A DNA stretch of 64,000 bases from Psammoneis japonica (taxonomy: Eukaryota). Under the pieces are notes generated by a model. The model made no database searches. It was not told the DNA's origin and saw only the letters and a list, made by a program, of their open reading frames with translations. Shown here piece after piece: positions 7,262 through 33,866 of this stretch. The stretch is taken from the NCBI GenBank assembly GCA_008632985.1, contig QPGO01000086.1, positions 1 through 64,000 of the forward strand. Direction: 5' to 3'. The translations under genes and the position numbers were made by a program. The number at the start of each line of letters is the position of its first letter. Positions within the stretch are counted from its first letter, which is position 1.

Positions 7262-8180
7262 TCATGTCGAGCACCAATGAAAGACGAGGCAAAGTTGTCC
7301 CAAAATCAAATTCCAAAAATCAATGCTTCCTACGTATCTGAAGTAAAATTAAAAAAGGAGCGTTAAAATTTATAGAACGATCCGATTTCTAGCGCGCCAT
7401 TTTTTATGAATTGCTAAGGTTCTGCAGACATTGATTAACAGTTTCCTCCCGAACGTGTTTTTTGTATTCAATCGAAATAAAAATATAAAATCACATAAGA
7501 AATTTGTGCTTTTATATACGCCTAAATCTCCTATTGAATTAGTACGTCTCTTCAATGACTGTGTCCACGAGCTGTTATGTGCTTGGTTGTTGTCTCTTAT
7601 TGCTCTACAGGTGGAGTAGACATTGTTGCTTCGTCTACGATGATTGATCACTTAGGATGCAGACACTAGCCTACTCGTTCATTCCCCTAAATGTTGGCGC
7701 GAACTGGCGATGGACAGATAAACACATGCGGAGTTCTACGTAGAGGACCAATTTTAGCGATGACTTTGCCCCTATTTAACTTCTGTCAAAATAGGTGCCT
7801 TCCATAGCCATGGGCTATTCCGTAGGATCATTTAGGTCCTAACGCTACCGTTCGACACTAATGGCATGACCCCTTATCTACATCTGATGTGTCTACCGCC
7901 CTACAATAGTCACCATCGTTTCGTATTTAATTTGGACATGCTTCAATACGAAATTGTTCATCTAAGAAATATATCTTTGAATAATGACTACATGCTTTGT
8001 ATACGTAAAATGTAAAAATTAAATACAAAATGTAGTCATTTGTAGTCACTCTGGAGGAAACGGTTAAAAAATTCATAATCTCTCCGGCAAAAAATGAGTA
8101 GCCCTATTACCATTCACAATGGTCAATTTCGATTAGGTACTTCTATAGGGCCGTTGGTTTTGCGGAATAAAGTTGCAGTC

Positions 8181-9005
8181 ATGCCACAGTCTAATACAGA
8201 TAAAGACCCGCGATTCTCGCTGACAGACTGGGAACGTGAAAGTGTCCTTCGTCTCAAGGAGGCTTGCGATAAGGAGGGCCTAAAGTATGAATCGGTTTTT
8301 GATCTTGCAAAGTATGTTTTGGTAAGCAAAAGTGTTGCCAAGGACACGGATAAACGCGCTGACGAGAAGCGTCTCAATGAGGCTCTAAAGCGAATTCGCA
8401 ACTACCGGGATATTGTAACGAAAATGGATCTTGACAAGGTAGATCCCAAGTCTGTGCTAGAAAAACTTAATCAGAAATCTCCGGGATTTTTGATTTTTGA
8501 TTATCGCCGAGACAATGAAGGACGCCGAGTTATTGCTCGGTGCTATCAACACTCACCAACATACCTTTTGAAAGGCACGGATCAAGAGATAGCAGAATTC
8601 CTGGCGATGAGGTTTTGGGCGTTAGACCTTACGGCTGCCGACATGGTGGAGGCACGACGGGGTGTTGCGGTAGTTCTTCGCAGTTCTGAAACAGAAAAAA
8701 CGACCGTGAGTAAGGCCATGGATCACGGCCGCTTGATTGTCAAGTTAAAACGATACCACAAAGAAGAGACGCATCACGTCCGTTTGGGAAAGCTTTTTGT
8801 GCATGTTCCTCCCGTCGTTGAACATTTAGTCGCCCTTGGGAAGAAACTGGTTTTACCAAAGAAATTGGCAAGTCGCCTCCAGATGGTGTCAACCGTCACG
8901 GAATTGGAGAACCATTTAGAGCAAGACCCAGTCTCACTACAGGATTGGGTCTCGGAACGGGAAGCTACTTACAAGGAGACTGTCGACAAGCTGCGTCTCA
9001 AATGA
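8181..9005 (+). CDS. Diatom-type CRAL-TRIO/Sec14-like protein (alternative start at 8094)
   Basis: Long ORF with the LTxWERE...FDLAKYVLV...ALKRIR N-terminal pattern and RRDNEGRRVI...ARRGV...FVHVP, resembling expanded diatom CRAL-TRIO-like families. Confidence 0.55.
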   Translation: MPQSNTDKDPRFSLTDWERESVLRLKEACDKEGLKYESVFDLAKYVLVSKSVAKDTDKRADEKRLNEALKRIRNYRDIVTKMDLDKVDPKSVLEKLNQKSPGFLIFDYRRDNEGRRVIARCYQHSPTYLLKGTDQEIAEFLAMRFWALDLTAADMVEARRGVAVVLRSSETEKTTVSKAMDHGRLIVKLKRYHKEETHHVRLGKLFVHVPPVVEHLVALGKKLVLPKKLASRLQMVSTVTELENHLEQDPVSLQDWVSEREATYKETVDKLRLK

Positions 9006-9896
9006 AGATTAGGCGTTCTAGAGACATTGAACTAGTACTGTAGGATGTTGCCACTGAAACAGCTAGGAAGAGATACTCCAGGATATGGGACCCAAAGCCA
9101 AGCATGATATCAATCGGAGACAGGGCTTGCTTCAGTATGGTGCGAAGTCGTTTCTCTGCCGATTAATCTTATTTGGGATGAGACCGAGTATTTACCTACT
9201 ATGATACTCTTGCCCTTTCAGTCCTTCTCCGAAGACCACTCATCGTTGTTGTTGTGCTTGCACGGCCAACCTATGTTGTCCAAGCTAGGCATTCACTTTT
9301 TCGCGGCAGTGCCAATTCCAGTGTTAATAATTCGAGAGTGCTCTTTTAGGATCGAGGATGAGGCAAGATTCTCTCTAGAACGAGCATCACTCTAGCATTA
9401 TTGTTTCCTTCCATTCAAATCGAGTTTGGCAAGGGTTGGGAGCATTTAGAATTATTTCACTGCAGATGGTTCAGAACTATGCAGTGGAAAGCAGGCAAGC
9501 AAAGGTTTCCAGCAGAGTTTATTCTAATGTTTAAAAAGCGGGAGAGCGCTCACGATCGCAAGCAATCGGAAAACAACTCAAAAGAGCGCAGAAGCAACGA
9601 CTATGAAAAGGATAGCAGACGTAGAAGCGTGAGTACTGGGTCCAGCAAACGCTCCCGCCGAATCATCGAGACTTGATCCAGGAGGACCCGAACGTTGCCC
9701 AATGCCCGATCCTGAATAAGGAACCATTCCTGAATCCGTTCCTACTGGGGGGACAACGGGTGGCTCATTGACCGATCCTGAATTATCAGGGTTTGCTCCT
9801 GGGAGAGAAAAGGGTGGCAAGCACCAAAACACTACACAAATCATTTCAACTAATGCTAATATTCCCTCTACACCACATTATAATTCTTTTCGAGCA

Positions 9897-12017
9897 TCAA
9901 TCCACCTTTACATTTTGAAAAATGGCTCGGACAAACTTGGACGACGCCACGTGTCCCAGCGTCCCACAGAGCAATCCCAACGTCAAGGAAATAATGCTCA
10001 TGTATCCAAAGTAAAAGGAAAATTGCAAGAACCCATTCATTTGCGTTTTAATGGCATAATAATAAACGCCGTACGCAAAGACATAGGCCGCCGTACTGGC
10101 GCCACTGAAAAAGGCCGTCCATTGCCAATGGTAATTTTCGGCATTGAGGCAAAAGTACACCACAATAATGGACGTCATGCAAACGACAATGGCCATGATA
10201 CCGTACACGCCAAGCAAGAATCCGTAAACATGATAAAACTTGTAATTCCACAACGACGTCAAGACGTAATAGAGTTCAATAAAGATGGATCCAAACGAAA
10301 GCAAACCCGCCAGTGGGATCAAACCGGACGGTTTGCCATACCATGGAACATCTTCGGGAATGGGACGGGGAATGGCATTGACACGGCAGGGGAAGAATTG
10401 TTGTGCATCGCCGCCTCCCGTACCACCACCACCGGCAAGCCTCGCATGACGTCCCAGAAGAGTTCCCACTACACAGAGTGGAACGGAAACAAAAATCCAT
10501 AGCAAAAAGAGCTTGACAATCACCAAGAATGGAATGGTATTGATGGTCCCGTATGCCAAGGAAATGGCATTGAGAATCGTCAAAATGGTGGCCGTCACGG
10601 TGGGCAACAAGCAAATGGTGAGTCCCATGGTGACTTGCCACGCCGACGACGATGCCGGTGTGCTGCGTCGTGCTGCCGCCGTGGTGGGATAATACCTCTT
10701 GAAGAATTGTCCCGATGCATATCCCGCGACGATACTCGAAAGAGAATAGCACACGAGAATGGCATGAAGGACCTCACCACGCTCTTCATGGACAGCACCG
10801 TGCAACGGACCACTCACGGCAAACAACATGACACCCAGCGTCAACACAATGAGCTGCCAACCCGTTCCAAGCAGGGCGGCAAAGAGCATGAGATAGGACG
10901 GTGCTCGAAAGACATCACCGTGTACTTGTTTCCAACCCGCATCTTCGGTACCAGCACCACCACCGTGTCCCTTGTGACTGTCGGGATGAAGCGGTTTGGC
11001 TTCATCGTCATCGTCATCCACATCTTGAGCGGATGAAGCACTTTCCAAATCATGGACAAGTCCATAACGGGCGTAATCCTTTTTGAGAGTACGGAGTAAA
11101 ATGAGTGCGACCAATCCCGTCAAGAACAAGACCATCATGAAGGAATTGAAAATGGAAAACCAATGGATTTGGTGTTTAAAGAATTGATGATCAAGGTATC
11201 GATCAAAGCGGGAATGGAATTTCTCAGTGGTGGCGTGCCAGGAAATATCCAATTCAAACTTGAGGGACAAGCCCGGTTGGACCTTTTGAAGCGACGAGGG
11301 ATCACTCGTCAGATCCACCTTGACGATGCGGTCTTGATTGTAATAAATCTCCAAATTACGGGATGTGTAAATGTAAGGGACCAAATTCTCCGATTCTTGA
11401 TCCGACAAATCCGCAACCGCATCGAGACGGTTCTTATCATCGAGCTCACCCTGTATTTTGGGAGAGGAATTGGGAGGAAGCATTTCTCCCACCATGCCCC
11501 ACACGGGCAAATCATCGAGATACATTTGATAAAACCAACGGTGCTGAATGGCCTTTTGGAAAAGCGTGGCTTGTTCTTGGGAGAGAGGCGTTGTCGTGCT
11601 GCAGGATTCCTTTTCGTTTTTGCCATAGACAACATCGTGACCGGAATGCCTCAACGCGTGTCCGCCCAACGATTCTGCAAGAGTGTGCGGTTTGAGCTCA
11701 TTGAATCGTTCCGTATCCTTGGCGTCGGGGTGGTGTTTGGTATCGGGAGCACAATACGGAAGCGTGTAATACTCGTAAGCTTCTTGGGGATTGGCATACG
11801 GGCCGACCTAAGAAAGAGAGAGAGTAACTGTAAGTTTGCAGAGAAAAAAATCATAGCACACAAGAGCCGACACTGCAGAAAACAACTTGTTTTTGTATGC
11901 GCTTACTTTATTCACCCACAATTCCACATGATCTCCATTTTTATAGACATGATCCTTCATGTCGCCATAGACGGATGAAGCCGCCGCCGTGAGGAGCAGC
12001 AGCGGTAACTTCACCAT
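9897..12017 (-). CDS. TM9SF: Transmembrane 9 superfamily (EMP70/nonaspanin, TM9SF3-like) protein, exons 12017-11907 and 11807-9897
   Basis: Signal peptide, ELWVNK|VGPYANPQE across GT-AG intron 11906-11808, YLDDLPVWGMVGE, IHWFSIFNS, GWKQVHGDVFR, PCRVNAIPRPIP, and C-terminal KVD. Confidence 0.95.
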
Positions 12018-12188
12018 GGTTATTGCTGTTGTTGTTGTTGTGTTTGTCGTTGCCGTTTGCGGTGCGGGGCACAGTCATTTGCGGCGTAACGTATCTCGTA
12101 CCACTTGTACAGTGTACGCAGATTCAGTACTGAGCGGACGTAGGACGCAACGGATCAAACATTGGTGTTCGCGATTTGCGAACTGCAA

Positions 12189-14188
12189 ATGACTGACGTC
12201 TGTCTATCAACCCTTGTCAATCGGTTCGAGGTTCGAGCACTCGAGCACATCCTGCCCACAATGGCGGCAATGGCTGAGGATTGCTGCGATTTCCTTGACC
12301 AAGCCGCAAATGATGGCTGTGTTCTCAACAGTGACTTGAGCTCAGAAGCTGTGAACATCAAGCAACCATCACGCAAGGAGAAAAAAGAACGAACCGAGTG
12401 GAGCAACAAATTTCAGGAAATTTTTGGCAACTGCTCGGACCCGAACTTGGCAGCGCCGTCCGTTGACTCGACGAAAGAACTTTTGGAGCAGCATCTGATT
12501 CCCCCTCTTTTGAAAAACTGGTGACATCACCACATGCACCAGGGTCAATGAATCGAGGAGCGGTTGCATTTTAGTTCCTCTCCTCCTCCTCCGTCTCTCA
12601 AGAAATGTCCCTGTGGAAAGGATTCGTCGGGAAGGCTTCCCCAAGCATGAACCGAGTGCACAAGAGAGTTGAAACCAGTTGTGTCCACTGTCTTCTTGGA
12701 CAGTTTGAAATCCGGTGACAGTTCCTGCTGGTCAGAAGCATCAGAGGAAAATCACCTGATGATGGGCCTTCAGTTTCTAAGAAGAGCCCAGCTGCTTCAG
12801 ACGCGTTCCAGCTCTGGGTGGGACCTCGCACTGCTGAACTGTGACATTGACAGTTTTTTGGATCACACCGCATGTCATGCACACATGCATCTACGTGACT
12901 TTGGTGGAATTTTGCATCATTTTGTAGTGCAATTGTTGGGCGATCCATTCATCAACTTTTCATGTTTTTTCTTCTGCGGCATTTGCAAATGTCTTAAGAA
13001 TGGCGCAGGGCAGGCGGATCACCGAAAACTTCGAGTGTGGACAGGCACAAATGTGCTGCAAACTTGGCCGCTTATTTGATGTTGAATGTAAAAACACACA
13101 TTGACCAAACACTCATGATGCAGAGCTCGCACGTAGAATTCTGCGAGCGGAATGTCACAAAACGTCCCACCCAGGACTGGAACCCGTCTTCATTCCATTG
13201 CAAATGAATCATCCCCAGTTGGCAAGCCAGACTTTTGCTTGAAAAATCATGATGGGAAAGTCTCAGCAATTGGGGAAAGCAAGAGCACCCACAACTTGTT
13301 GCTGCCCCATGACACAAGCACTCTGCTGGAAAAATGTGCAGATGCCTGTGATGCGGTCGTGAGAGAAGAGAATTGTTTCCCGTGCAAATGATGAATGGTT
13401 GCATGTCGCTCACCCACTTGGGCAATTGTTGCTGCTGGGATGCATGGTCAACAATGGATGTCATTGCTGTGCTTTGACCAGTGCAACCTGTGCTTGCTTT
13501 GTTTGGATCCCAGGTCAGGAGAACACTGCAAAGGTCAATGTCCCTGAGCCGTGCTTTGTGGGAGAGGCCAACTGCTTTCGTGCATGGGCGCACCTCCACT
13601 CTTTGGGCTGCAGACAGACCAACAAATTAATGCCTCCAATCAGAGCTGCCAAACAGTGGCTGACAACATTGAAAGGCAGCCTGACCCCCCAACCAGAAAA
13701 CACAAGAAAACCTCACACAAAGGCAAGGCGTGAGGGAGGCAATGAAGGTGATGGTGGTCGGTTGACATCAAAACAAAGGAAAAAGTCCACCAGCCTTGAC
13801 CCACCCAAAGCCAACTTTTGTGACCTTGAATTTGGTGACAAACTTGGCAATTCAATGTGGGAAGAGATGGCCCTGGACTTTTTGAGAAAGAAATGTTGGC
13901 CCATGCCACAACTGGGGTCTGCTTGTGCCGGAACCTTTGTTTCTTGCAGAGGCTGCCTCAGGGGGAGTGATGTTTTTGGGGCTGCAGCTTGGCAGGTCAT
14001 CTCTTTGTGACAAAGAAGGTGAAACTGATGACCTGCTGTGCCAACAGCAGCAATCCATTCACAAGACTCTTGAAGACAAGCATGGAATTCGCCACAATGA
14101 TGTGAGAGGCAATGCCACAGTTGTCAAAACCAATGGTGCAGAGAGGCTGGCAACAATTGATTTTGAGGACTGGGAGAATGTGTTGTGA
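12189..14188 (+). pseudogene. Hypermutated gene for a restriction-endonuclease-like plus protein-kinase-like protein, interrupted by a MITE
   Basis: GKPDF...IGESK motif, HPLGQL..GCMVNNG...ALTSAT (Y->C), and C-terminal GIRHNDVR...IDFEDW kinase-like motifs. Contains stops and frameshifts. Confidence 0.55.
12800..13188. mobile_element. ~390-bp MITE, copy 1 (partly TA-mutated)
   Basis: TIRs GACGCGTTCCAGCTCTGGGTGGG and CCCACCCAGGACTGGAACCCGTC. 4-bp TSD TTCA at 12796-12799 and 13189-13192. Homologous to 43368-43763. Confidence 0.85.
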
Positions 14189-16972
14189 GGTTGCTGGCAT
14201 TTGGAAGCAGTTGACATGTGAACCCGAGACAAGCAATGCCAGAAAAAAGCAGACTTTGGACAGTCTGACAGCATCCATTTGAGGCAAAAAGTTGGCCAAT
14301 GCACACGCTAATTCCAGTGCAGAATTTCGAAAAATAATTGCCACAGAAATGACATTTGAAACCAGTTGATGCGCAAGCCCAAGACAGGCCATGCCACCGG
14401 AGAAGAAGACTTTGGACAATGTGACAGCAACTTGTGATGCGTCATTGTGCGTTTTGCTTTTTTTAGTCCATCACAGGCAAAAAGTCGACCAATGCACATG
14501 CCAACTCCAATGCAGAAATTCAAAAACACTTTTGCCACCCCATGGAAATTGGTGCATCAAGACAACTTCTTTGAAGAAGAAACCCAATGCCAAGAGCATC
14601 TCCTGCAACCTCTCCGCTTGACAGCCATGAGGTTTGTCAAATCCCCACCAGATGTGAACAACACCTCAAAACTGTCAAAGAAGACAACAAGAAACAAGCT
14701 CCCATTGAAAAAGGTGTCCGCAGTTTGGAACCTCAGGGCTGAATGAGTTCAAGCATGTGAGAAATGACTTGGCAATGTCAGAAGGCAAGTCTGGCAGAAA
14801 CAATTTTTTGTCCTCCAGCAAAGATCCTGCCAAGTGCACAGATTCACTCATGGGTGAGACATCAAGAAGTCCTTCAAATGCTTCCAGATCCACATCTTGC
14901 AGCAATTCTGTCCATTGGACAAAGTCCTTTGGCAGACCTTGTCTGACATTCAATTTCGGATCATCAGGTTCATCCCAATGAGACCAGAGTCAAGGCCATC
15001 TTGGTCAAAGTCCTGAAATGGTGCCACCAGTGGATGTGGCTCCAGGGCAGATGTGAGCGTTCAGCAACACCAAGATTCCACACTGAGCCCATGCTCTTAA
15101 AAAGGAAGCAATGCAGTCACACAGAATTGCTGGCCAATGCACCCCATCAAAGAAACGCACTCATGACAAAGAAACAACTGGCACAGATGCTGCACTGTGT
15201 CAAAGCTGGCTGCAGTTGTTCTTGTTGTTGTGGTGACCAGTGCAGCATTGAGTGTGAGAGATGCACAAGCCCTGCATCATGCAGTCCTTGCATTTGAAGC
15301 ACAGGCAACCCAGAGCTCAGCAGCCAACACCTTTGAATGCTTGTGATGCCAAAGTGACCAGCTGAAGAGTGGCAAGTTGCTCAGCTTCTTAAGCTCCACC
15401 TTGTTTGTGCAAAGCTGAGCAGAAGTCATCCAAAATGTCCAAAAACCATGGCCCTCATTTTGGCAGACTTGTTCTCATTGAAGTCATCATCAGAGTCAAG
15501 TGCACCGCACCCTTCAACAGAGAAAAAATGGAGAGCAACAGGGCAGGCAGACAAACATGTGGACTGCCAAGCAAAGTGAGCTTTGCACACCGCCTTTTCT
15601 TGTGTGGCAACAGACAGCTCTTCCTCCAAGCACTGATGCTGCAGATGAGGAGGGTGACCCACATGGACACTGGAGCCCATGGCAGGGTTGCCCAGGGGAG
15701 TTTTGCTGGCAAACTTGTGCCAGTTGTGTGCCAAGTTGTCTGCAAGGCAGAAGTCAGCAGCAGAGCAATGCAAAACATGCTCAACATTGGCAGCCTTGTC
15801 AACAACATTCAGGCATGACAAGTGAAGTGACAACTTTGTCAGAGGTGAAGAGTTGGCAACACTTGGGTGGGCCAAAACATCAACATGACATGCCGTCGGG
15901 GTCTTGTTGTGGAATGGAAAATCAAGAGCCCAGCCCTTTGCAGCAATGCAAGGGCCAGAGCTGGCTCCTTTTGAGGAAGAAGAAGTTTCAGCCATCTTGA
16001 TGCTTCCATCTCAGGTGTCTGGCACTGGTCTGCAACAAAGAGGGGGCTTGCAGGCCTGTTCCAGCCCCAGGTGGTGAGAAATCCATCATGCAAGAGGCCA
16101 AGCACTGAGCTCCTTCAAATTGGATCCTTTTGAAAATCAAAGGGTGAGAGCACACAAAAAAAACAAGTTTTGTGTGCACTCACCCTTCGGTTTGGGAAAA
16201 ACCCAATTTTGAAGGAGTTTGTTGCACTGAATGCAAAAACGGGCCAGCGATGGGAGCAAAGCCTGTGCACATTGTCCGGAGCTGAACAGGCAGCCTGCAA
16301 GCCTCTGATGCATGTCAGTGTGTTGCCCTCACAACAGCAATGCCAAACCTCAATGGACTGATGTTGCATCCTTGCCCACCTCTTCTCATGTGAAGAAAAT
16401 GGTTGTTTGCATCAGCAACATGGGCAACAGGGCAGCCCATGCTTTTCTCGTGTTGCTTTCAGCACCCCCGCAGCTCTTGTCCTCACGTGCTTTGTCACAT
16501 CAAAGACAAAGCAGCATGAGCGGGGACAAAAAGCAATTGAAAATGATGTGCCACATGACATCCACAGGGGTGACGATGGACACTTGTGGACACGTCAATT
16601 TTTCAGGGAAAAAAAACAAGTGCACCACGCCAAATGTGCGCAATTGCCAAACAAAGTTGTTCTGGCAACAGGCCAAACTTTGTCCATTCCCAGGATGTCA
16701 CAGAATGCCCAGACAGCAGCTGTGGCCATGCACTGTGTTCAGCTTGTTGGCTGCACACAAGCAAAGCAACTTTGGTGAACACTGGTGGCAATTTCAACAA
16801 CCTGGCAAAATGACAGGAGGGTGGCTGACAAGTGACAAATGTCCAAAGGATGCCCAAGAACAGTGCAGATGTCCTTCTCTCTTTGAGATTGAAAAATGCG
16901 GCAACAATTGTGATGCACAGCCCCGTTCAGGGAAGTGTTCCGTGCTCTCTCTAGAGTGGGGGGAAGAATGTC

Positions 16973-19900
16973 GGCAATTTTTTCATGTTCGTGGCCGGTT
17001 AAAGGAAAAGAGAAAAAAAGAGGGAATCAACCGTTGAACACACACACACAATTGACCATGCAACCATGGCCAGAGTTGCACTGGCTTCTTTTGATCCAGG
17101 GTGGTTGCTGCAGGTGCAAAGAGTGGGGCACATTGCAGTTGCAGGAGGGTGACAATGTGGCACTGAGTGTGTGCCACCAGGCTGAGCAGCCCAGCTTGGG
17201 TGTCAGCCAAGCCCTGCCAGGCCAGCTGCCCTGGCTCCAGCTGCTCTTCCCAGTGTGCGTGAGTTGTTGAAGGAGCACCACATTGACTCAAAGGCTGTGT
17301 TTTAAGTGGGGCAGAGAGAAAAAACTGTTGTCTTGGCTGGTGCTTGCTTCAGACCCTGCATCATGAGCGCAAGCTCCTCTTGAGAAATGAGCGAGAACAG
17401 CCATTTTTGGCGCCTCTCTTTGGTTGCCCACTTGGCATTGCCAACAAATCTTGAACCAAACTTCACTCACAGTTTCTTCACTCTTCAACCACAAAACCAG
17501 GTTCAACTTTTTGTTGGCTTCTTTGTGGCTGGGGTCACTGTTGCAGGCACAAATGGTGGGCACATGCCATGTGGCTGCTTGGCAACAAGAATGTGATGCC
17601 AAGCATGTGCTGCACACCAAGGAGCCAAGCAGCCCAGCCCAGCTTTGAATGGAGCCCCAGGACAGCAGCCAACTCTGGGTGATCTCAGCATGGTGTGCTT
17701 GTTTGGGCTGTGCTGCACTCACCCCACAGTGCTCTGTGTTGTGGTGGCTTGTTGTGCAAGCCGTGTGGCTGAAGAGCCAGCAGCCAGCCAGGGCCCATCT
17801 TGCAAAGGCCACAAATGTTGACCCTGTGCAAAGCTGTGTGAGGGGGCAGGCACAGGGATTTGCAATGATGGCTTCACAGCCATTGGCCCCAAGTTGGCAT
17901 TTGATTGGGAGCCAGTGCTGAGGGGCTGTGAAGTGTGGGGTTGGGAGCCCAGCCAGCTCGCACTCTCTTTGTTGTCACAAAGTGCTGCCACAGCTGTCTT
18001 TGCATTGCAACCAGCCAGGTGCGGTTGACCCCAAGTTGGCACTTGATTTGGAGTGACTGCCAAGGAGCTGTGAAGTGTGGGGTTGGGCAGTCCAGCCAGC
18101 TCACACTCTTTGCTGACAGCAGAAAGCACTGTCGCAGCTGTCCTTGCGCACACATGGCCAGAGCAGCCTTGGCACATCCTGCTGACAAAACTGACAAAGA
18201 CAGCGACTCTTGTGGTTGAGCCACTCAGCACGCAGGAGATCTGGGCACACTCCTGGGAAGTCAAACAGGAAGGAGGGCTGAGCATTGCCGCCAGTGCCAG
18301 GCACAAATGTCAGCTTGTCTTGAGAGAGATTCGAGCCCACACAGCCCCGCGTTGGGCATCTTTGCTGGCAAAATGGAAAGCATTCTTGAGCACATTCTGG
18401 CATGTGGGCAGCACTGTCACCAAGAGGGCTGCTCTGCAGAGGAAGAGGGAAATGGGCAACAACATTTTGCAAGAACTGTTTTGTGTCAATGGTCGGGTGG
18501 GATGTGGCAGCATCATCTGGACTTTGATGGAGCATTTGGCGGACAAAGCTTGAGCACAGAGAGTTGTCCACTCAAGCTCCACAAGTGGCACTTTCCAAAG
18601 GTGACACCACACATGGGCCATGTGTTCATGCATCAACATGCCTCAAGCTGCAAGTCACACAAAAAAACCACCACCAACCTTTCAGCCAACCACCATCATG
18701 GACAGAACAGGTCAAGAGGTTCAAAACAAGAGCGATTCATTGACTCTCTTCTGGTTCCATGCATTCAAGAGCTTCTTGTCCTTCTCAAATGTTTGTTGTG
18801 CATTGTTGTCTCTTTTAATTCAAGTGCAAAGAGGAGTCACTTTTCTTGTTTCCATCTCTTGAGATGTTGTTGGTTGTTGAGTGATGCAACTTTTGTTGTC
18901 ACATTTTTGGAAATGTTGGCAAACCCGATCACTGCTTGATTGTCAACCCATTTGCTGTTTTAAGTCTCCATGGCATGAAATGCCACAATTCCAGAGCCCT
19001 CAATTGTTTCATCAAACGCAGTGCTTTGAAACACGTCCAACATCAACTCGACTCAGTTGAAATCCCAGTTTGTGGGCGATGAAAAATCACGAATGTCAAA
19101 CAAATGGCTGCTTTCGACATCAAGATCCCCGAGTTCAATCCAAATGTGATGGTGCGCCTCACAGCTTGTGGCCATGACACACACAAGCATGCCTCATTGT
19201 CATCGCGTCGAGCACTCGTGTCGAAAATGCCGATAGATCAAAGTTCAGGAAAAGGATGGAATGCAAATTCATTTGTGAATTCATTGGTGGCATTGGCGCA
19301 ATGATGTTTGCGGCAGAAGCAATCTAAAATCCTCATTCATCATTGACATTTCTGTGTTGCTCAGATTTTGAAATCTGACCACTGCCGTCAAGCATTTAGC
19401 TGTCTTTGCATGGAAGTGGAAATGACACTTAACGATTTACACTGACCATTTGGCTTTCTTTGTGTCGAAGTGGAAATGACACTTAACGATTTACACTGAC
19501 CATTTGGCTTACTTTGGCTCGAAGTCAGACAAAGAGATTGGGCCATGGGCTTGTCGTCAACCAGCCACGAGCATGAAATCTTTACCGGAGTCGGCAATTT
19601 TTTCATGTTCGTGGCCGGTTAAAGGAAAAGAGAAAAAAAGAGGGGAATCAACCGTTGAACACACACACACAATTGACCATGCAACCATGGCCAGAGTTGC
19701 ACTGGCTTCTTTTGATCCAGGGTGGTTGCTGCAGGTGCAAAGAGTGGGGCACATTGCAGTTGCAGGAGGGTGACAATGTGGCACTGAGTGTGTGCCACCA
19801 GGCTGAGCAGCCCAGCTTGGGTGTCAGCCAAGCCCTGCCAGGCCAGCTGCCCTGGCTCCAGCTGCTCTTCCCAGTGTGCGTGAGTTGTTGAAGGAGCACC

Positions 19901-22900
19901 ACATTGACTCAAAGGCTGTGTTTTAAGTGGGGCAGAGAGAAAAAACTGTTGTCTTGGCTGGTGCTTGCTTCAGACCCTGCATCATGAGCGCAAGCTCCTC
20001 TTGAGAAATGAGCGAGAATGGCCATTTTTGGCGCCTCTCTTTGGTTGCCCACTTGGCATTGCCAACAAATCTTGAACCAAACTTCACTCACAGTTTCTTC
20101 ACTCTTCAACCACAAAACCAGGTTCAACTTTTTGTTGGCTTCTTTGTGGCTGGGGTCACTGTTGCAGGCACAAATGGTGGGCACATGCCATGTGGCTGCT
20201 TGGCAACAAGAGTGTGATGCCAAGCATGTGCTGCACACCAAGGAGCCAAGCAGCCCAGCCCAGCTTTGAATGGAGCCCCAGGACAGCAGCCAACTCTGGG
20301 TGATCTCAGCATGGTGTGCTTGTTTGGGCTGTGCTGCACTCACCCCACAGTGCTCTGTGTTGTGGTGGCTTGTTGTGCAAGCCGTGTGGCTGAAGAGCCA
20401 GCAGCCAGCCAGGGCCCATCTTGCAAAGGCCACAAATGTTGACCCTGTGCAAAGCTGTGTGAGGGGCAGGCACAGGGATTTGCAATGATGGCTTCACAGC
20501 CATTGGCCCCAAGTTGGCATTTGATTGGGATCCAGTGCTGAGGGGCTGTGAAGTGTGGGGTTGGGAGCCCAGCCAGCTCGCACTCTCTTTGTTGTCACAA
20601 AGTGCTGCCACAGCTGTCTTTGCATTGCAGCCAGCCAGGTGCGGTTGACCCCAAGTTGGCACTTGATTTGGAGTGACTGCCAAGGAGCTGTGAAGTGTGG
20701 GGTTGGGCAGTCCAGCCAGCTCACACTCTTTGCTGACAGCAGAAAGCACTGTCGCAGCTGTCCTTGCGCACACATGGCCAGAGCAGCCTTGGCACATCCT
20801 GCTGACAAAACTGACAAAGACAGCGACTCTTGTGGTTGAGCCACTCAGCACGCAGGAGATCTGGGCACACTCCTGGGAAGTCAAACAGGAAGGAGGGCTG
20901 AGCATTGCCGCCAGTGCCAGGCACAAATGTCAGCTTGTCTTGAGAGAGATTCGAGCCCACACAGCCCCGCGTTGGGCATCTTTGCTGGCAAAATGGAAAG
21001 CATTCTTGAGCACATTCTGGCATGTGGGCAGCACTGTCACCAAGAGGGCTGCTCTGCAGAGGAAGAGGGAAATGGGCAACAACATTTTGCAAGAACTGTT
21101 TTGTGTCAATGGTCGGGTGGGATGTGGCAGCATCATCTGGACTTTGATGGAGCATTTGGCGGACAAAGCTTGAGCACAGAGAGTTGTCCACTCAAGCTCC
21201 ACAAGTGGCACTTTCCAAAGGTGACACCACACATGGGCCATGTGTTCATGCATCAACATGCCTCAAGCTGCAAGTCACACAAAAAAACCACCACCAACCT
21301 TTCAGCCAACCACCATCATGGACAGAACAGGTCAAGAGGTTCAAAACAAGAGCGATTCATTGACTCTCTTCTGGTTCCATGCATTCAAGAGCTTCTTGTC
21401 CTTCTCAAATGTTTGTTGTGCATTGTTGTCTCTTTTAATTCAAGTGCAAAGAGGAGTCACTTTTCTTGTTTCCATCTCTTGAGATGTTGTTGGTTGTTGA
21501 GTGATGCAACTTTTGTTGTCACATTTTTGGAAATGTTGGCAAACCCGATCACTGCTTGATTGTCAACCCATTTGCTGTTTTAAGTCTCCATGGCATAAAA
21601 TGCCATAATTCCAGAGCCCTCAATTGTTTCATCAAACGCAGTGCTTTGAAACACGTCCAACATCAACTCGACTCAGTTGAAATCCCAGTTTGTGGGCGAT
21701 GAAAAATCACGAATGTCAAACAAATGGCTACTTTCGACATCAAGATCCCCGAGTTCAATCCAAATGTGACGGTACGCCTCACAGCTTATGGCCATGACAC
21801 ATACAAGCATGCCTCATTGTCATCGCGTCGAGCACTCGTATCGAAAATGCCGATAGATCAAAGTTCAGGAAAAGGATGGAATACAAATTCATTTGTGAAT
21901 TCATTAGTGGCATTGGCGTAATGATATTTACGGCAGAAGCAATCTAAAATCCTTATTCATCATTGACATTTCTGTATTGCTCAGATTTTGAAATCTGACC
22001 ACTACCGTTAAGCATTTAGCTGTCTTTGTATGGAAGTGGAAATGACACTTAACGATTTACACTAACCATTTAGCTTTCTTTGTGTCGAAGTGGAAATGAC
22101 ACTTAACGATTTACACTAACCATTTAGCTTACTTTGGCTCGAAGTCAGACAAAGAGATTGGGCTATGGGCTTGTCGTTAACCAGCCACGAGCATGAAATC
22201 TTTACCATTTCGGCAATTTTTTCATGTTCGTGGCCGGTTAAAGGAAAAGAGAAAAAAAGAGGGGAATCAACCGTTGAACACACACACACAATTGACCATG
22301 CAACCATGGCCAGAGTTGCACTGGCTTCTTTTGATCCAGGGTGGTTGCTGCAGGTGCAAAGAGTGGGGCACATTGCAGTTGCAGGAGGGTGACAATGTGG
22401 CACTGAGTGTGTGCCACCAGGCTGAGCAGCCCAGCTTGGGTGTCAGCCAAGCCCTGCCAGGCCAGCTGCCCTGGCTCCAGCTGCTCTTCCCAGTGTGCGT
22501 GAGTTGTTGAAGGAGCACCACATTGACTCAAAGGCTGTGTTTTAAGTGGGGCAGAGAGAAAAAACTGTTGTCTTGGCTGGTGCTTGCTTCAGACCCTGCA
22601 TCATGAGCGCAAGCTCCTCTTGAGAAATGAGCGAGAATGGCCATTTTTGGCGCCTCTCTTTGGTTGCCCACTTGGCATTGCCAACAAATCTTGAACCAAA
22701 CTTCACTCACAGTTTCTTCACTCTTCAACCACAAAACCAGGTTCAACTTTTTGTTGGCTTCTTTGTGGCTGGGGTCACTGTTGCAGGCACAAATGGTGGG
22801 CACATGCCATGTGGCTGCTTGGCAACAAGAATGTGATGCCAAGCATGTGCTGCACACCAAGGAGCCAAGCAGCCCAGCCCAGCTTTGAATGGAGCCCCAG

Positions 22901-25900
22901 GACAGCAGCCAACTCTGGGTGATCTCAGCATGGTGTGCTTGTTTGGGCTGTGCTGCACTCACCCCACAGTGCTCTGTGTTGTGGTGGCTTGTTGTGCAAG
23001 CCGTGTGGCTGAAGAGCCAGCAGCCAGCCAGGGCCCATCTTGCAAAGGCCACAAATGTTGACCCTGTGCAAAGCTGTGTGAGGGGCAGGCACAGGGATTT
23101 GCAATGATGGCTTCACAGCCATTGGCCCCAAGTTGGCATTTGATTGGGATCCAGTGCTGAGGGGCTGTGAAGTGTGGGGTTGGGAGCCCAGCCAGCTCGC
23201 ACTCTCTTTGTTGTCACAAAGTGCTGCCACAGCTGTCTTTGCATTGCAACCAGCCAGGTGCGGTTGACCCCAAGTTGGCACTTGATTTGGAGTGACTGCC
23301 AAGGAGCTGTGAAGTGTGGGGTTGGGCAGTCCAGCCAGCTCACACTCTTTGCTGACAGCAGAAAGCACTGTCGCAGCTGTCCTTGCGCACACATGGCCAG
23401 AGCAGCCTTGGCACATCCTGCTGACAAAACTGACAAAGACAGCGACTCTTGTGGTTGAGCCACTCAGCACGCAGGAGATCTGGGCACACTCCTGGGAAGT
23501 CAAACAGGAAGGAGGGCTGAGCATTGCCGCCAGTGCCAGGCACAAATGTCAGCTTGTCTTGAGAGAGATTCGAGCCCACACAGCCCCGCGTTGGGCATCT
23601 TTGCTGGCAAAATGGAAAGCATTCTTGAGCACATTCTGGCATGTGGGCAGCACTGTCACCAAGAGGGCTGCTCTGCAGAGGAAGAGGGAAATGGGCAACA
23701 ACATTTTGCAAGAACTGTTTTGTGTCAATGGTCGGGTGGGATGTGGCAGCATTGTCTGGACTTTGATGGAGCATTTGGCGGACAAAGCTTGAGCACAGAG
23801 AGTTGTCCACTCAAGCTCCACAAGTGGCACTTTCCAAAGGTGACACCACACATGGGCCATGTGTTCATGCATCAACATGCCTCAAGCTGCAAGTCACACA
23901 AAAAAACCACCACCAACCTTTCAGCCAACCACCATCATGGACAGAACAGGTCAAGAGGTTCAAAACAAGAGCGATTCATTGACTCTCTTCTGGTTCCATG
24001 CATTCAAGAGCTTCTTGTCCTTCTCAAATGTTTGTTGTGCATTGTTGTCTCTTTTAATTCAAGTGCAAAGAGGAGTCACTTTTCTTGTTTCCATCTCTTG
24101 AGATGTTGTTGGTTGTTGAGTGATGCAACTTTTGTTGTCACATTTTTGGAAATGTTGGCAAACCCGATCACTGCTTGATTGTCAACCCATTTGCTGTTTT
24201 AAGTCTCCATGGCATAAAATGCCATAATTCCAGAGCCCTCAATTGTTTCATCAAACGCAGTGCTTTGAAACACGTCCAACATCAACTCGACTCAGTTGAA
24301 ATCCCAGTTTGTGGGCGATGAAAAATCACGAATGTCAAACAAATGGCTACTTTCGACATCAAGATCCCCGAGTTCAATCCAAATGTGACGGTACGCCTCA
24401 CAGCTTATGGCCATGACACATACAAGCATGCCTCATTGTCATCGCGTCGAGCACTCGTATCGAAAATGCCGATAGATCAAAGTTCAGGAAAAGGATGGAA
24501 TACAAATTCATTTGTGAATTCATTAGTGGCATTGGCGTAATGATATTTACGGCAGAAGCAATCTAAAATCCTTATTCATCATTGACATTTCTGTATTGCT
24601 CAGATTTTGAAATCTGACCACTACCGTTAAGCATTTAGCTGTCTTTGTATGGAAGTGGAAATGACACTTAACGATTTACACTAACCATTTAGCTTTCTTT
24701 GTGTCGAAGTGGAAATGACACTTAACGATTTACACTAACCATTTAGCTTACTTTGGCTCGAAGTCAGACAAAGAGATTGGGCTATGGGCTTGTCGTTAAC
24801 CAGCCACGAGCATGAAATCTTTACCATTTTCGGCAATTTTTTCATGTTCGTGGCCGGTTAAAGGAAAAGAGAAAAAAAGAGGGGAATCAACCGTTGAACA
24901 CACACACACAATTGACCATGCAACCATGGCCAGAGTTGCACTGGCTTCTTTTGATCCAGGGTGGTTGCTGCAGGTGCAAAGAGTGGGGCACATTGCAGTT
25001 GCAGGAGGGTGACAATGTGGCACTGAGTGTGTGCCACCAGGCTGAGCAGCCCAGCTTGGGTGTCAGCCAAGCCCTGCCAGGCCAGCTGCCCTGGCTCCAG
25101 CTGCTCTTCCCAGTGTGCGTGAGTTGTTGAAGGAGCACCACATTGACTCAAAGGCTGTGTTTTAAGTGGGGCAGAGAGAAAAAACTGTTGTCTTGGCTGG
25201 TGCTTGCTTCAGACCCTGCATCATGAGCGCAAGCTCCTCTTGAGAAATGAGCGAGAATGGCCATTTTTGGCGCCTCTCTTTGGTTGCCCACTTGGCATTG
25301 CCAACAAATCTTGAACCAAACTTCACTCACAGTTTCTTCACTCTTCAACCACAAAACCAGGTTCAACTTTTTGTTGGCTTCTTTGTGGCTGGGGTCACTG
25401 TTGCAGGCACAAATGGTGGGCACATGCCATGTGGCTGCTTGGCAACAAGAATGTGATGCCAAGCATGTGCTGCACACCAAGGAGCCAAGCAGCCCAGCCC
25501 AGCTTTGAATGGAGCCCCAGGACAGCAGCCAACTCTGGGTGATCTCAGCATGGTGTGCTTGTTTGGGCTGTGCTGCACTCACCCCACAGTGCTCTGTGTT
25601 GTGGTGGCTTGTTGTGCAAGCCGTGTGGCTGAAGAGCCAGCAGCCAGCCAGGGCCCATCTTGCAAAGGCCACAAATGTTGACCCTGTGCAAAGCTGTGTG
25701 AGGGGGCAGGCACAGGGATTTGCAATGATGGCTTCACAGCCATTGGCCCCAAGTTGGCATTTGATTGGGATCCAGTGCTGAGGGGCTGTGAAGTGTGGGG
25801 TTGGGAGCCCAGCCAGCTCGCACTCTCTTTGTTGTCACAAAGTGCTGCCACAGCTGTCTTTGCATTGCAACCAGCCAGGTGCGGTTGACCCCAAGTTGGC

Positions 25901-28900
25901 ACTTGATTTGGAGTGACTGCCAAGGAGCTGTGAAGTGTGGGGTTGGGCAGTCCAGCCAGCTCACACTCTTTGCTGACAGCAGAAAGCACTGTCGCAGCTG
26001 TCCTTGCGCACACATGGCCAGAGCAGCCTTGGCACATCCTGCTGACAAAACTGACAAAGACAGCGACTCTTGTGGTTGAGCCACTCAGCACGCAGGAGAT
26101 CTGGGCACACTCCTGGGAAGTCAAACAGGAAGGAGGGCTGAGCATTGCCGCCAGTGCCAGGCACAAATGTCAGCTTGTCTTGAGAGAGATTCGAGCCCAC
26201 ACAGCCCCGCGTTGGGCATCTTTGCTGGCAAAATGGAAAGCATTCTTGAGCACATTCTGGCATGTGGGCAGCACTGTCACCAAGAGGGCTGCTCTGCAGA
26301 GGAAGAGGGAAATGGGCAACAACATTTTGCAAGAACTGTTTTGTGTCAATGGTCGGGTGGGATGTGGCAGCATTGTCTGGACTTTGATGGAGCATTTGGC
26401 GGACAAAGCTTGAGCACAGAGAGTTGTCCACTCAAGCTCCACAAGTGGCACTTTCCAAAGGTGACACCACACATGGGCCATGTGTTCATGCATCAACATG
26501 CCTCAAGCTGCAAGTCACACAAAAAAACCACCACCAACCTTTCAGCCAACCACCATCATGGACAGAACAGGTCAAGAGGTTCAAAACAAGAGCGATTCAT
26601 TGACTCTCTTCTGGTTCCATGCATTCAAGAGCTTCTTGTCCTTCTCAAATGTTTGTTGTGCATTGTTGTCTCTTTTAATTCAAGTGCAAAGAGGAGTCAC
26701 TTTTCTTGTTTCCATCTCTTGAGATGTTGTTGGTTGTTGAGTGATGCAACTTTTGTTGTCACATTTTTGGAAATGTTGGCAAACCCGATCACTGCTTGAT
26801 TGTCAACCCATTTGCTGTTTTAAGTCTCCATGGCATAAAATGCCATAATTCCAGAGCCCTCAATTGTTTCATCAAACGCAGTGCTTTGAAACACGTCCAA
26901 CATCAACTCGACTCAGTTGAAATCCCAGTTTGTGGGCGATGAAAAATCACGAATGTCAAACAAATGGCTACTTTCGACATCAAGATCCCCGAGTTCAATC
27001 CAAATGTGACGGTACGCCTCACAGCTTATGGCCATGACACATACAAGCATGCCTCATTGTCATCGCGTCGAGCACTCGTATCGAAAATGCCGATAGATCA
27101 AAGTTCAGGAAAAGGATGGAATACAAATTCATTTGTGAATTCATTAGTGGCATTGGCGTAATGATATTTACGGCAGAAGCAATCTAAAATCCTTATTCAT
27201 CATTGACATTTCTGTATTGCTCAGATTTTGAAATCTGACCACTACCGTTAAGCATTTAGCTGTCTTTGTATGGAAGTGGAAATGACACTTAACGATTTAC
27301 ACTAACCATTTAGCTTTCTTTGTGTCGAAGTGGAAATGACACTTAACGATTTACACTAACCATTTAGCTTACTTTGGCTCGAAGTCAGACAAAGAGATTG
27401 GGCTATGGGCTTGTCGTTAACCAGCCACGAGCATGAAATCTTTACCATTTTCGGCAATTTTTTCATGTTCGTGGCCGGTTAAAGGAAAAGAGAAAAAAAG
27501 AGGGGAATCAACCGTTGAACACACACACACAATTGACCATGCAACCATGGCCAGAGTTGCACTGGCTTCTTTTGATCCAGGGTGGTTGCTGCAGGTGCAA
27601 AGAGTGGGGCACATTGCAGTTGCAGGAGGGTGACAATGTGGCACTGAGTGTGTGCCACCAGGCTGAGCAGCCCAGCTTGGGTGTCAGCCAAGCCCTGCCA
27701 GGCCAGCTGCCCTGGCTCCAGCTGCTCTTCCCAGTGTGCGTGAGTTGTTGAAGGAGCACCACATTGACTCAAAGGCTGTGTTTTAAGTGGGGCAGAGAGA
27801 AAAAACTGTTGTCTTGGCTGGTGCTTGCTTCAGACCCTGCATCATGAGCGCAAGCTCCTCTTGAGAAATGAGCGAGAATGGCCATTTTTGGCGCCTCTCT
27901 TTGGTTGCCCACTTGGCATTGCCAACAAATCTTGAACCAAACTTCACTCACAGTTTCTTCACTCTTCAACCACAAAACCAGGTTCAACTTTTTGTTGGCT
28001 TCTTTGTGGCTGGGGTCACTGTTGCAGGCACAAATGGTGGGCACATGCCATGTGGCTGCTTGGCAACAAGAATGTGATGCCAAGCATGTGCTGCACACCA
28101 AGGAGCCAAGCAGCCCAGCCCAGCTTTGAATGGAGCCCCAGGACAGCAGCCAACTCTGGGTGATCTCAGCATGGTGTGCTTGTTTGGGCTGTGCTGCACT
28201 CACCCCACAGTGCTCTGTGTTGTGGTGGCTTGTTGTGCAAGCCGTGTGGCTGAAGAGCCAGCAGCCAGCCAGGGCCCATCTTGCAAAGGCCACAAATGTT
28301 GACCCTGTGCAAAGCTGTGTGAGGGGGCAGGCACAGGGATTTGCAATGATGGCTTCACAGCCATTGGCCCCAAGTTGGCATTTGATTGGGATCCAGTGCT
28401 GAGGGGCTGTGAAGTGTGGGGTTGGGAGCCCAGCCAGCTCGCACTCTCTTTGTTGTCACAAAGTGCTGCCACAGCTGTCTTTGCATTGCAACCAGCCAGG
28501 TGCGGTTGACCCCAAGTTGGCACTTGATTTGGAGTGACTGCCAAGGAGCTGTGAAGTGTGGGGTTGGGCAGTCCAGCCAGCTCACACTCTTTGCTGACAG
28601 CAGAAAGCACTGTCGCAGCTGTCCTTGCGCACACATGGCCAGAGCAGCCTTGGCACATCCTGCTGACAAAACTGACAAAGACAGCGACTCTTGTGGTTGA
28701 GCCACTCAGCACGCAGGAGATCTGGGCACACTCCTGGGAAGTCAAACAGGAAGGAGGGCTGAGCATTGCCGCCAGTGCCAGGCACAAATGTCAGCTTGTC
28801 TTGAGAGAGATTCGAGCCCACACAGCCCCGCGTTGGGCATCTTTGCTGGCAAAATGGAAAGCATTCTTGAGCACATTCTGGCATGTGGGCAGCACTGTCA

Positions 28901-30067
28901 CCAAGAGGGCTGCTCTGCAGAGGAAGAGGGAAATGGGCAACAACATTTTGCAAGAACTGTTTTGTGTCAATGGTCGGGTGGGATGTGGCAGCATTGTCTG
29001 GACTTTGATGGAGCATTTGGCGGACAAAGCTTGAGCACAGAGAGTTGTCCACTCAAGCTCCACAAGTGGCACTTTCCAAAGGTGACACCACACATGGGCC
29101 ATGTGTTCATGCATCAACATGCCTCAAGCTGCAAGTCACACAAAAAAACCACCACCAACCTTTCAGCCAACCACCATCATGGACAGAACAGGTCAAGAGG
29201 TTCAAAACAAGAGCGATTCATTGACTCTCTTCTGGTTCCATGCATTCAAGAGCTTCTTGTCCTTCTCAAATGTTTGTTGTGCATTGTTGTCTCTTTTAAT
29301 TCAAGTGCAAAGAGGAGTCACTTTTCTTGTTTCCATCTCTTGAGATGTTGTTGGTTGTTGAGTGATGCAACTTTTGTTGTCACATTTTTGGAAATGTTGG
29401 CAAACCCGATCACTGCTTGATTGTCAACCCATTTGCTGTTTTAAGTCTCCATGGCATAAAATGCCATAATTCCAGAGCCCTCAATTGTTTCATCAAACGC
29501 AGTGCTTTGAAACACGTCCAACATCAACTCGACTCAGTTGAAATCCCAGTTTGTGGGCGATGAAAAATCACGAATGTCAAACAAATGGCTACTTTCGACA
29601 TCAAGATCCCCGAGTTCAATCCAAATGTGACGGTACGCCTCACAGCTTATGGCCATGACACATACAAGCATGCCTCATTGTCATCGCGTCGAGCACTCGT
29701 ATCGAAAATGCCGATAGATCAAAGTTCAGGAAAAGGATGGAATACAAATTCATTTGTGAATTCATTAGTGGCATTGGCGTAATGATATTTACGGCAGAAG
29801 CAATCTAAAATCCTTATTCATCATTGACATTTCTGTATTGCTCAGATTTTGAAATCTGACCACTACCGTTAAGCATTTAGCTGTCTTTGTATGGAAGTGG
29901 AAATGACACTTAACGATTTACACTAACCATTTAGCTTTCTTTGTGTCGAAGTGGAAATGACACTTAACGATTTACACTAACCATTTAGCTTACTTTGGCT
30001 CGAAGTCAGACAAAGAGATTGGGCTATGGGCTTGTCGTTAACCAGCCACGAGCATGAAATCTTTACC
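16973..30067. repeat. Head-to-tail array of five ~2.62-kb TIR-bounded units: 16973-19586, 19593-22206, 22212-24825, 24832-27446, 27453-30067
   Basis: Near-identical units. Left end GGCAATTTTTTCATGTTCGTGGCCGGTTAA is an imperfect inverted repeat of right end TTAACCAGCCACGAGCATGAAATCTTTACC. Spacers are GGAGTC, ATTTC, ATTTTC, ATTTTC. Each unit has an internal 44-bp direct repeat (54-bp period) near its right end. Confidence 0.9.
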
Positions 30068-33755: not shown

Positions 33756-33866
33756 NNNNNNNNNNNNNNNNNNNNNNNNNNNNNNNNNNNNNNNNNNNNN
33801 NNNNNNNNNNNNNNNNNNNNNNNNNNNNNNNNNNNNNNNNNNNNNNNNNNNNNNNNNNNNNNNNNN
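33756..33866. other. Assembly gap (111 N)
   Basis: Run of N. Confidence 1.

Follow-up and report, generated by a model that had tools for sequence, protein, structure and literature searches.

Substitutions at TA in one copy of a tandem repeat: the footprint of a probable TpA-directed hypermutation in a diatom genome

Positions 16971–30069 of the window, by which we mean the whole stretch of 64,000 nucleotides analysed here (positions 1 to 64,000 of contig QPGO01000086.1, assembly GCA_008632985.1, Psammoneis japonica), consist of five head-to-tail units of ~2620 bases each. The tail of the first unit, copy 1, differs from the tails of copies 2–5 almost solely where the latter carry the dinucleotide TA and copy 1 carries TG or CA. 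The locus raises the question of which process exchanges TA for TG or CA with such selectivity, in which direction it runs, and how far it reaches beyond this one tail. We conclude that a hypermutation acting on DNA, which turns TpA into TpG or CpA (A:T to G:C), has probably processed the copy 1 tail in part.

Substitutions in the copy 1 tail

The five units were aligned with MAFFT and every variable column was listed (unit bounds in Table 1). Across the tail, which spans 626 bases in the alignment, copies 2–5 carry 33 TA, of which copy 1 keeps 10, and copy 1 has no private TA. In particular, copy 1 has TG where all of copies 2–5 have TA at 18977, 19110, 19154, 19168, 19220, 19263, 19286, 19306, 19310, 19356, 19384, 19444, 19452, 19498, and 19506 (15 sites), and CA where all of them have TA at 18986, 19182, 19299, 19334, 19389, 19409, 19544, and 19558 (8 sites). 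The sole tail difference outside TA is at position 19150, which is CG in copies 2–5 and TG in copy 1. Substitutions fall on TA bases in 23 of 24 cases (Fisher p = 1.4e-23), while 23 of the 24 CpG dinucleotides are intact in copy 1. The alignment reproduces every position given in the preliminary description of this locus, including the CG-to-TG change, and agrees with its statements that about ten TA survive, that nearly all CpG are untouched, and that the process is highly specific.

The two outcomes, TG and CA, are interspersed along the copy 1 tail (12 runs, versus 11.4 expected by permutation), so that both strands were hit without strand-coordinated clusters. Per site, the copy 1 tail shows a loss of 1.19 at TA and of 0.043 at CpG, a difference of ~28-fold, and TA loss exceeds the rate given by the single other private substitution of copy 1 in its ~2450 remaining bases by a factor that we put roughly at 3000. 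These values bear out the earlier claims that both strands are targeted (15 TG and 8 CA) and that the process outpaces background mutation as well as CpG decay.

The unit head, 1989 bases in length, contains three TA, all of them TTAA and all common to every copy, and only 5 of its bases differ among copies. The units are mosaic: the site at 17398–9 groups copies 2–5, and the site at 18514–5 groups copy 1 with copy 2. The transition from head to tail in copy 1 is continuous, and the conversion edge carries no extra differences. Because editable TA is lacking in the unit head, the edited patch ends on its right somewhere within 19558–21597, and it may extend over the whole of copy 1 and the flank. 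Along the copy 1 tail, conversion affects 16 of 19 TA sites up to 19389 and 7 of 14 beyond it (a hand count, and one confounded by sequence context). The tail also contains two full 54-bp internal repeats (19393–19525; in copy 2, 22009–22145), and in copy 1 all four paired TA sites of these repeats have the same outcome (kept, kept, TG, TG; p ~0.016 under independence); a third copy of the ATTTAGCT site in the copy 1 tail is kept.

Direction of change and reach across the window

The preliminary description took TA as the state before and TG or CA as the state after. The five copies cannot by themselves polarise the change, and the direction is therefore taken from independent evidence elsewhere in the window. 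The tail itself provides no outgroup: a search of its open frame at 21703–21918 against 1.84 billion protein representatives returned three weak matches (best E = 2e-9), to unrelated, internally repetitive proteins (a bacterial Ig-like repeat protein and others), and these were rejected as homology.

A Copia-type retrotransposon in the right part of the window does have an outgroup. We compared it by tblastn with 50 relatives at 45–58% identity from the protein collection, and scored a site as conserved if 15 or more relatives covered it and at least 60% of them carry Tyr. Copia relatives include Fragilaria and Cyclotella. At none of the 41 conserved Tyr sites does the window element carry Tyr; instead it has Cys (TGY) at 23, His (CAY) at 13, Phe at 3, and other residues at 2. 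When ten relatives were scored in the same way as a leave-one-out control, 309 of 368 sites were still Tyr, 2 were Cys, and 6 were His. The Tyr content of the window Copia open reading frames is 0.000–0.002, versus medians of 0.030 and 0.033 and a minimum of 0.008 in two sets of 120 relatives. Conserved Arg sites in the element are His or Cys in 14 of 67 cases, versus the loss of every conserved Tyr. The outgroup comparison establishes TAY to TGY or CAY as the direction in this genome. For the copy 1 tail itself we infer the same direction, TA to TG or CA, from the Copia polarity, the gene-like TA content of copies 2–5 (odds ratio 0.60), the TG of copy 1 at 19150, where CG to TG is the usual direction of CpG decay, and the high sequencing depth of the TA form (see below). 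A near-length search for other edited Copia copies gave a best identity of 59%, and 0 of 120 matches were Tyr-free.

The two candidate long terminal repeat (LTR) pieces of the Copia element are ~11% diverged and differ by 16 events, all of them transitions: 6 of CG versus TG or CA, 4 of TA versus TG or CA, 4 double differences of TG versus CA, and 2 others; 14 of the 16 belong to the classes that lead from CG or TA to TG or CA. LTRs are identical at integration, and their differing by transitions indicates that the changes were made in resident DNA and not through RNA copying. Four old repeat pairs of 70–79% identity in TA-free DNA (33867–36740 versus 47733–48785 and 58335–61073) show 9–29 TG-versus-CA double differences each, as expected from independent editing of TA or CG ancestors. 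We considered such doubles (17398–9, 18514–5, the four in the LTR pair, and those of the old repeat pairs) as proof of a TA ancestor and dropped them, because a CpG ancestor decaying independently yields identical pairs.

Dinucleotide odds ratios (rho) and 1-kb bins divide the window into domains of two kinds. Repeat domains contain 125 TA in 36,454 bases (3.4 per kb), with rho TA of 0.00–0.1, rho CA and rho TG of 1.4–2.2, and lowered CpG (rho CpG 0.1–0.3 around the array), and most of their 1-kb bins hold 0–4 TA. Gene domains contain 615 TA in 14,652 bases (42 per kb), and the gene-bearing parts (1–12200, 30070–32030, and from ~63430) have rho TA of 0.48–0.78 and CpG of ~1. The edges are sharp: composition changes within a few hundred bases of genes, and it is ordinary directly after the array ends. 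The single-copy flank at 16500–16893 (depth 36–47) is also TA-free, though it is possibly an old diverged repeat. Within TA-free DNA, two islands have gene-like TA and CpG, namely the tails of copies 2–5 and 43368–43764. The latter is an insertion in the Copia frame, across which relatives show unbroken protein coordinates; either it arrived after the editing or it was shielded from it. A palindrome lies near 43551–43586 in this insertion, and GGAGCTCG is present at both of its ends. Taken across the window, the process is near completion on transposon and repeat DNA and spares genes and the few hundred bases around them.

The TA-free DNA also carries a signature in its reading frames. Long open frames run on all six frames (36 frames of at least 80 amino acids within 16000–22300), because TAA and TAG are removed and no stops are created, and these frames lack Tyr and abound in Cys, His, Trp, and Gln.

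The TA that survive in TA-free DNA are mostly TTAA and CTAA/TTAG. Specifically, sites with a purine before and a pyrimidine after the dinucleotide (RTAY: ATAC, ATAT, GTAC) account for 3 of 125 survivors versus 175 of 615 TA in gene DNA, and sites with the opposite flanks (YTAR: TTAA, CTAA/TTAG, CTAG) account for 72 of 125 survivors versus 112 of 615 in gene DNA (chi-square p = 6e-22). In the copy 1 tail, conversion reached all 7 RTAY sites, 9 of the 14 mixed sites, and 7 of the 12 YTAR sites. The class ranking RTAY > mixed > YTAR is the sole preference that we claim. At ancestral Tyr codons the strand that is hit depends on the neighbouring bases: codons after a pyrimidine gave 19 Cys versus 4 His, and codons after a purine gave 7 Cys versus 12 His (Fisher p = 0.004). 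A simple rule of A followed by pyrimidine fits this strand choice but fails for the TTAC sites of the tail, and was rejected. On the plus strand TG exceeds CA both at Tyr codons (23 versus 13) and in the tail (15 versus 8; pooled binomial p = 0.036), and at Tyr codons this excess is largely explained by the flank preference. Together these results define a TA-specific A:T-to-G:C process that acts at the DNA level, hits the A of either strand at TpA, outpaces CpG decay, and has a graded flank preference.

Reference-free Logan contigs from four runs (X1–X4) of one sample and study were placed on 16500–22400. Contigs of X1 match the TA-free flank 16500–16972 with no differences at a depth of 36–55 (36–47 in unique flank), cover the joint of flank and copy 1 (16842–16972) at a depth of 55 with no differences, and match pieces of the TA-free head with 0–1 differences. 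One X1 contig (21552–21762) covers three of the edited sites in the TA form at a depth of 3043 with no differences, and one X2 contig (21154–22062) crosses the head/tail boundary and joins TA-free head and TA-rich tail in a single sequence. Among these contigs the tail is common, and deep, in its TA form, and the covered parts of the copy 1 tail have no differing letters listed.

Pieces of the unit have a depth of 1900–3000, which is ~40–80 times that of the unique flank and indicates a family of roughly 40–80 copies, of which five are assembled here. Loose ends at 16967 and 22203–22206 continue into several different sequences, so that the unit is present at other places too or the array is collapsed. 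Family contigs carry CA-versus-TG variants at 20019/20020 and 21073/21074, and at 20158, 21510, and 21898 copy 2 departs from the majority of the family. The earlier description of the units as sister copies holds for the five that we aligned, but is a simplification of a family far larger than five.

Proposed explanation and its alternatives

In the scenario that we favour, the unit head lost its TA before the family amplified, leaving TTAA alone, and the tail entered amplification carrying gene-like TA and CpG content. The copy 1 tail then lost 23 of its 33 TA after the copies separated, while copies 2–5 and most family members elsewhere kept theirs, with RTAY sites edited early and YTAR sites (TTAA, CTAA/TTAG) last. 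We infer that adenine in DNA would be deaminated, giving hypoxanthine, and that the enzyme would strictly require a 5′ T and be possibly of the ADAT2/TadA-like kind proposed for Bigelowiella natans. TA loss and CpG loss occur in the same places, which suggests that targeting would follow silent, CpG-methylated chromatin. Such chromatin may reach copy 1 from the left flank and leave the tails of copies 2–5 uncovered; the conversion gradient along the copy 1 tail hints weakly at a spread of this kind.

Several observations weigh against this scenario. Background differences of copy 2 from copies 3–5 are about as many as those of copy 1, yet copy 2 keeps all 33 TA, which misfits a clock-like editing of every copy and means that a targeting rule must be assumed. 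That the tail was passed over when the head was cleared by earlier editing can be put down to capture of fresh DNA or to protection, and both are guesses. The shared outcomes in the 54-bp repeats may reflect context dependence, or conversion between repeats, and not independent hits, and the TTAC sites of the copy 1 tail, four of five of which are kept, are not predicted by the A-then-pyrimidine rule. Among the contigs listed, none spans copy 1 to copy 2 or flank, copy 1, and copy 2 together, and 18864–19060 lacks cover, so that it is the assembly that puts the edited tail where it is; moreover, the single sample behind the contig runs may be the source of the assembly itself. Finally, no Tyr-free frame is present among 240 Copia relatives in the protein collection, and other diatoms, as sampled through Copia proteins, give no sign of the process.

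Two alternatives concern how the copy 1 tail came to stand where the assembly places it. A modified base might be misread at TA in repeats and corrected by short reads elsewhere, or the copy 1 tail might be misjoined. Normal gene-like regions next to altered repeats are what incomplete polishing gives, and nanopore callers misread methylated adenine; in addition, there is an assembly gap of 111 N at 33756–33866, inside the right TA-free domain, the family is far deeper than the number of assembled copies would give, and part of the copy 1 tail lacks contig cover. We nevertheless consider such an artefact very unlikely, since the contigs reproduce both the TA-free flank and the TA-free head, one of them joins TA-free head to TA-rich tail, and the covered copy 1 tail shows no other letters. 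Long exact contigs also suggest accurate polymerase-read data, in which a modified A would be read as A, and the conversion of Tyr is complete and consistent and stands alongside ordinary CpG decay and diverged LTRs, as in real evolution. Alternatively, the same process could have acted on a family member elsewhere, from which the copy 1 tail was imported by gene conversion or unequal exchange. The many further family copies and other junctions would provide donors, and the CA-versus-TG family variants and the mosaic units show that copies differ. The continuity of head and tail in copy 1, with no extra differences at the conversion edge, argues against import, as does the finding of no contig from another locus with a copy 1-type tail among the contigs listed, which are a minority of the records; we judge this course of events highly unlikely.

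The other two alternatives replace the process itself. If the polarity were reversed, as in repeat-induced point mutation (RIP), copy 1 would hold the original TG and CA, and the ancestor of copies 2–5 would have taken C-to-T changes at CpA before amplification. The array alone does not speak against this; both strands and repeated DNA are affected, as they are in RIP, and a change at 23 of the 123 CA and TG dinucleotides of copy 1 would be a plausible light RIP. A study of diatom DNA methyltransferases relates the DNMT4 enzymes of diatoms to fungal RID (PMC9998398). The Copia outgroup, by contrast, shows the opposite change: of 41 Tyr sites none is kept, and 36 have become Cys or His. The repeats are nearly free of TA, whereas RIP enriches it; TA in the tails of copies 2–5 is merely within the gene range and not in excess; position 19150 would require T to C at TpG; and RIP makes stops, yet these domains are open on all six frames. 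On this evidence we regard the reverse direction as exceedingly unlikely. ADAR-like A-to-I editing of double-stranded RNA, fixed by reverse transcription while the element is copied, would suit a retroelement such as Copia, and the Discussion of the B. natans preprint notes that ADAR favours a 5′ U (10.64898/2026.01.13.699255). Editing of this type should leave LTRs and resident tandem copies alike, whereas the LTR pair differs at four TA-class and four TG/CA double sites, and copy 1 differs from copies 2–5 within one tandem array, on both strands and with interspersed outcomes. The single-copy flank, which is not a retroelement, is equally TA-free, and the B. natans events are reported to have arisen in place in DNA during vegetative growth. 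RNA editing is the least likely of the four alternatives, and we give it next to no weight.

We read this genome as that of a second lineage with TpA-targeted hypermutation, here almost saturated on repeats. A wider reading is possible, though we would not yet call it probable: a genome defence, in diatoms or in this one at least, that mirrors RIP, in which TA-specific adenine editing, guided to silenced, methylated chromatin, would rewrite every accessible transposon and repeat TA and leave genes untouched, too quickly for ordinary mutations to build up, with RTAY sites before YTAR sites and with the destruction of Tyr and stop codons. If this wider reading is true, then, together with Bigelowiella, TpA editing would be an old immune mechanism across the stramenopiles, alveolates, and rhizarians.

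Relation to known systems and remaining features of the window

Cytosine hypermutation is established as a defence against mobile DNA, in the form of RIP in fungi and of APOBEC in animals. For adenine, a counterpart specific to TpA is so far known from a single report, a preprint of 2026 that deals with one chlorarachniophyte. In the literature that we searched, from which subscription journals were largely absent, this preprint is the sole report of TA-to-TG or TA-to-CA hypermutation, and none concerns diatoms.

According to that preprint, the viral DNA integrated into the genome of Bigelowiella natans is subject to TpA-targeted hypermutation (Mettrop et al., bioRxiv 10.64898/2026.01.13.699255, 2026). 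Mutation-accumulation lines acquired 231 new mutations within two such regions, and 230 of these were A>G or T>C, each at a TpA; this exceeded the background rate ~1000-fold and took place in some lines only. The B. natans genome contains, genome-wide, clusters poor in TpA and rich in CpA+TpG, reverse transcriptase and DDE domains are over-represented among its low-TpA coding sequences, and an ADAT2-like deaminase is proposed as the candidate enzyme (10.64898/2026.01.13.699255). The resemblance to our window is close: in both, A>G and T>C changes occur at TpA on either strand and give TpG or CpA, and in both the changes are confined to regions, linked to foreign or transposon-like DNA, and accompanied by a long-term low-TpA footprint. 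In the window, nearly all changes are A>G or T>C, they fall on TpA, and they are confined to mobile and repeat regions; their direction is given by an outgroup for Copia and is deduced for the copy 1 tail.

The two cases also differ in several respects. The lineage here is a diatom (a stramenopile), as judged by homology, and that of B. natans is a chlorarachniophyte. Rho TA is 0.00–0.1 over tens of kb here, versus 0.45 in the B. natans region with an insert of a nucleocytoplasmic large DNA virus. The targets here are Copia, the high-copy 2.62-kb repeat, and old repeats, with coincident CpG depletion, unlike in B. natans. A flank preference is measured here, whereas the B. natans text gives TpA alone; and the B. 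natans process was seen live in culture, whereas here it is known from its footprint. What is new here is the lineage, the near-saturation on retrotransposons and repeats, the coincidence with CpG loss, and the measured flank preference; the kind of process has been described once before.

RIP in ascomycete fungi changes C to T at CpA in duplicated sequence before meiosis. It shares with the process described here the dense, context-specific transitions on both strands, the disabling of repeats and mobile DNA, and the sharp edges against single-copy genes. It differs in its product, since it turns CpA and TpG into TpA, makes stops, and leaves AT-rich DNA, whereas here TpA becomes CpA or TpG, frames stay open, and GC is raised; correspondingly, the repeats in the window show neither the TpA excess nor the loss of CpA and TpG that RIP leaves. 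The diatom methyltransferase paper, in the portions available here, mentions RIP solely in regard to DNMT4 (PMC9998398). Deamination of methylated CpG likewise ends in TG and CA and is active in the same domains, as the Arg-to-His or Arg-to-Cys changes in Copia illustrate; however, it accounts for 1 of the 24 differences in the copy 1 tail, where it is some 28 times slower per site and leaves almost all CpG intact.

As to a candidate enzyme, the tRNA adenosine deaminases TadA and ADAT2–ADAT3 act on A34, which follows U33 in tRNA, and this neighbour would give a requirement for a 5′ T on DNA. Adenine deamination by enzymes of this type reads as A>G, and it is this type that was proposed for B. 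natans. The amphioxus protein BjADAT2 is reported to be a DNA-editing relative of the tRNA adenosine deaminases (PMC10354150).

A second, distant, and ecologically dominant lineage would show that the mechanism is no curiosity of one alga. It would also show that such editing shapes genome composition on a large scale, leaving tens of kb with practically no TA, without tyrosine codons, and with few stops, and that its rules (flank preference, exclusion from genes, and relation to CpG methylation) are readable from sequence. Copy 1 versus copies 2–5 provides a natural internal control for rate and specificity and a concrete locus to follow in culture. Gene and repeat finders would misread DNA of this kind, since open frames on all six frames lead to over-calling and the change of Tyr to Cys or His blurs protein homology.

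Table 1. Coordinates of the features in the window
Feature	Positions	Strand	Remarks
Gene-bearing domain	1..12200		ordinary composition; Stc1-domain, CRAL/TRIO, and EMP70 genes
Left TA-free, CpG-poor domain	12600..16970		1–4 TA per kb in bins 13001–17000; rho CA, TG 1.5–1.9
Unit bounds from MAFFT, copies 1 to 5	16971–19590; 19591–22207; 22208–24827; 24828–27448; 27449–30069		
Copy 1 of the 2.62-kb unit	16971..19586	n/a	left side joined to single-copy TA-free flank
Copy 1 tail, presumed "after" state	18961..19586		23/33 TA converted (15 TG, 8 CA); 1/24 CpG to TG
Joint of copies 1 and 2	19587..19590		GGAG, unique; ATT or ATTT at other unit joints
Copies 2–5	19591..30069		mutually 99.8–100% alike; heads with 0–1 TA per kb
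Copy 2 tail, presumed "before" state	21581..22206		33 TA, 24 CpG; rho TA 0.60, rho CpG 0.94, gene-like
Equivalent TA-rich tails, copies 3–5	24200–24825, 26821–27446, 29442–30067		
MATH-BTB gene island	30070..32030		2 kb, ordinary composition; begins directly where array ends
Right TA-free domain	32100..63400		0–12 TA per kb except in one island; contains the Copia element and dispersed repeats of greater age
Candidate 5′ LTR piece	38661..38869	+	pairs with 46403–46614
Copia-type retrotransposon coding region	39587..46397	+	41 conserved Tyr sites scored
Insertion in Copia frame, ~397 bp	43368..43764		27 TA in 43383–43709, CpG-rich; unedited island, sharp edges
Candidate 3′ LTR piece	46403..46614	+	

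The 2.62-kb unit resembles no family that we searched for. Rfam gave no matches on unit or tail and a tRNA scan gave none, so that the tail is no known RNA gene; Pfam returned nothing above cut-off for nine open frames of the unit, and a DUF5134 match in one unit frame (E = 0.0018; 18.7 bits versus a cut-off of 29) was rejected. A 40-base stretch of the tail had no exact matches in metagenome contigs. Helitrons insert after an A, start with TC, and end in CTRR; the unit has TC at its start but neither the preceding A nor the CTRR end, and a reading of it as a Helitron is unsupported.

In the gene-bearing part of the window, the EMP70 frame is 70–75% identical to diatom proteins (Epithemia, Mayamaea, Nitzschia) and to MMETSP transcripts; the protein collection contains no near-identical protein, and a protein atlas confirms the identity of the gene as EMP70. 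Since Bigelowiella proteins are also among these sources, a diatom is by far the likelier origin of the window than Bigelowiella. Tandem repeats are present in DNA of both kinds. Specifically, nested tandem repeats of 32–34 and 163 bases (GCAGCAGCACAAAGGCYCCAAC-like) occupy 61811–62387 in TA-free DNA, and tandem repeats of 168/192 bases occupy 4371–5445 in DNA of ordinary composition, within a 444-amino-acid frame that has Stc1 domains with cysteine-rich RKCSKCGE-type motifs.

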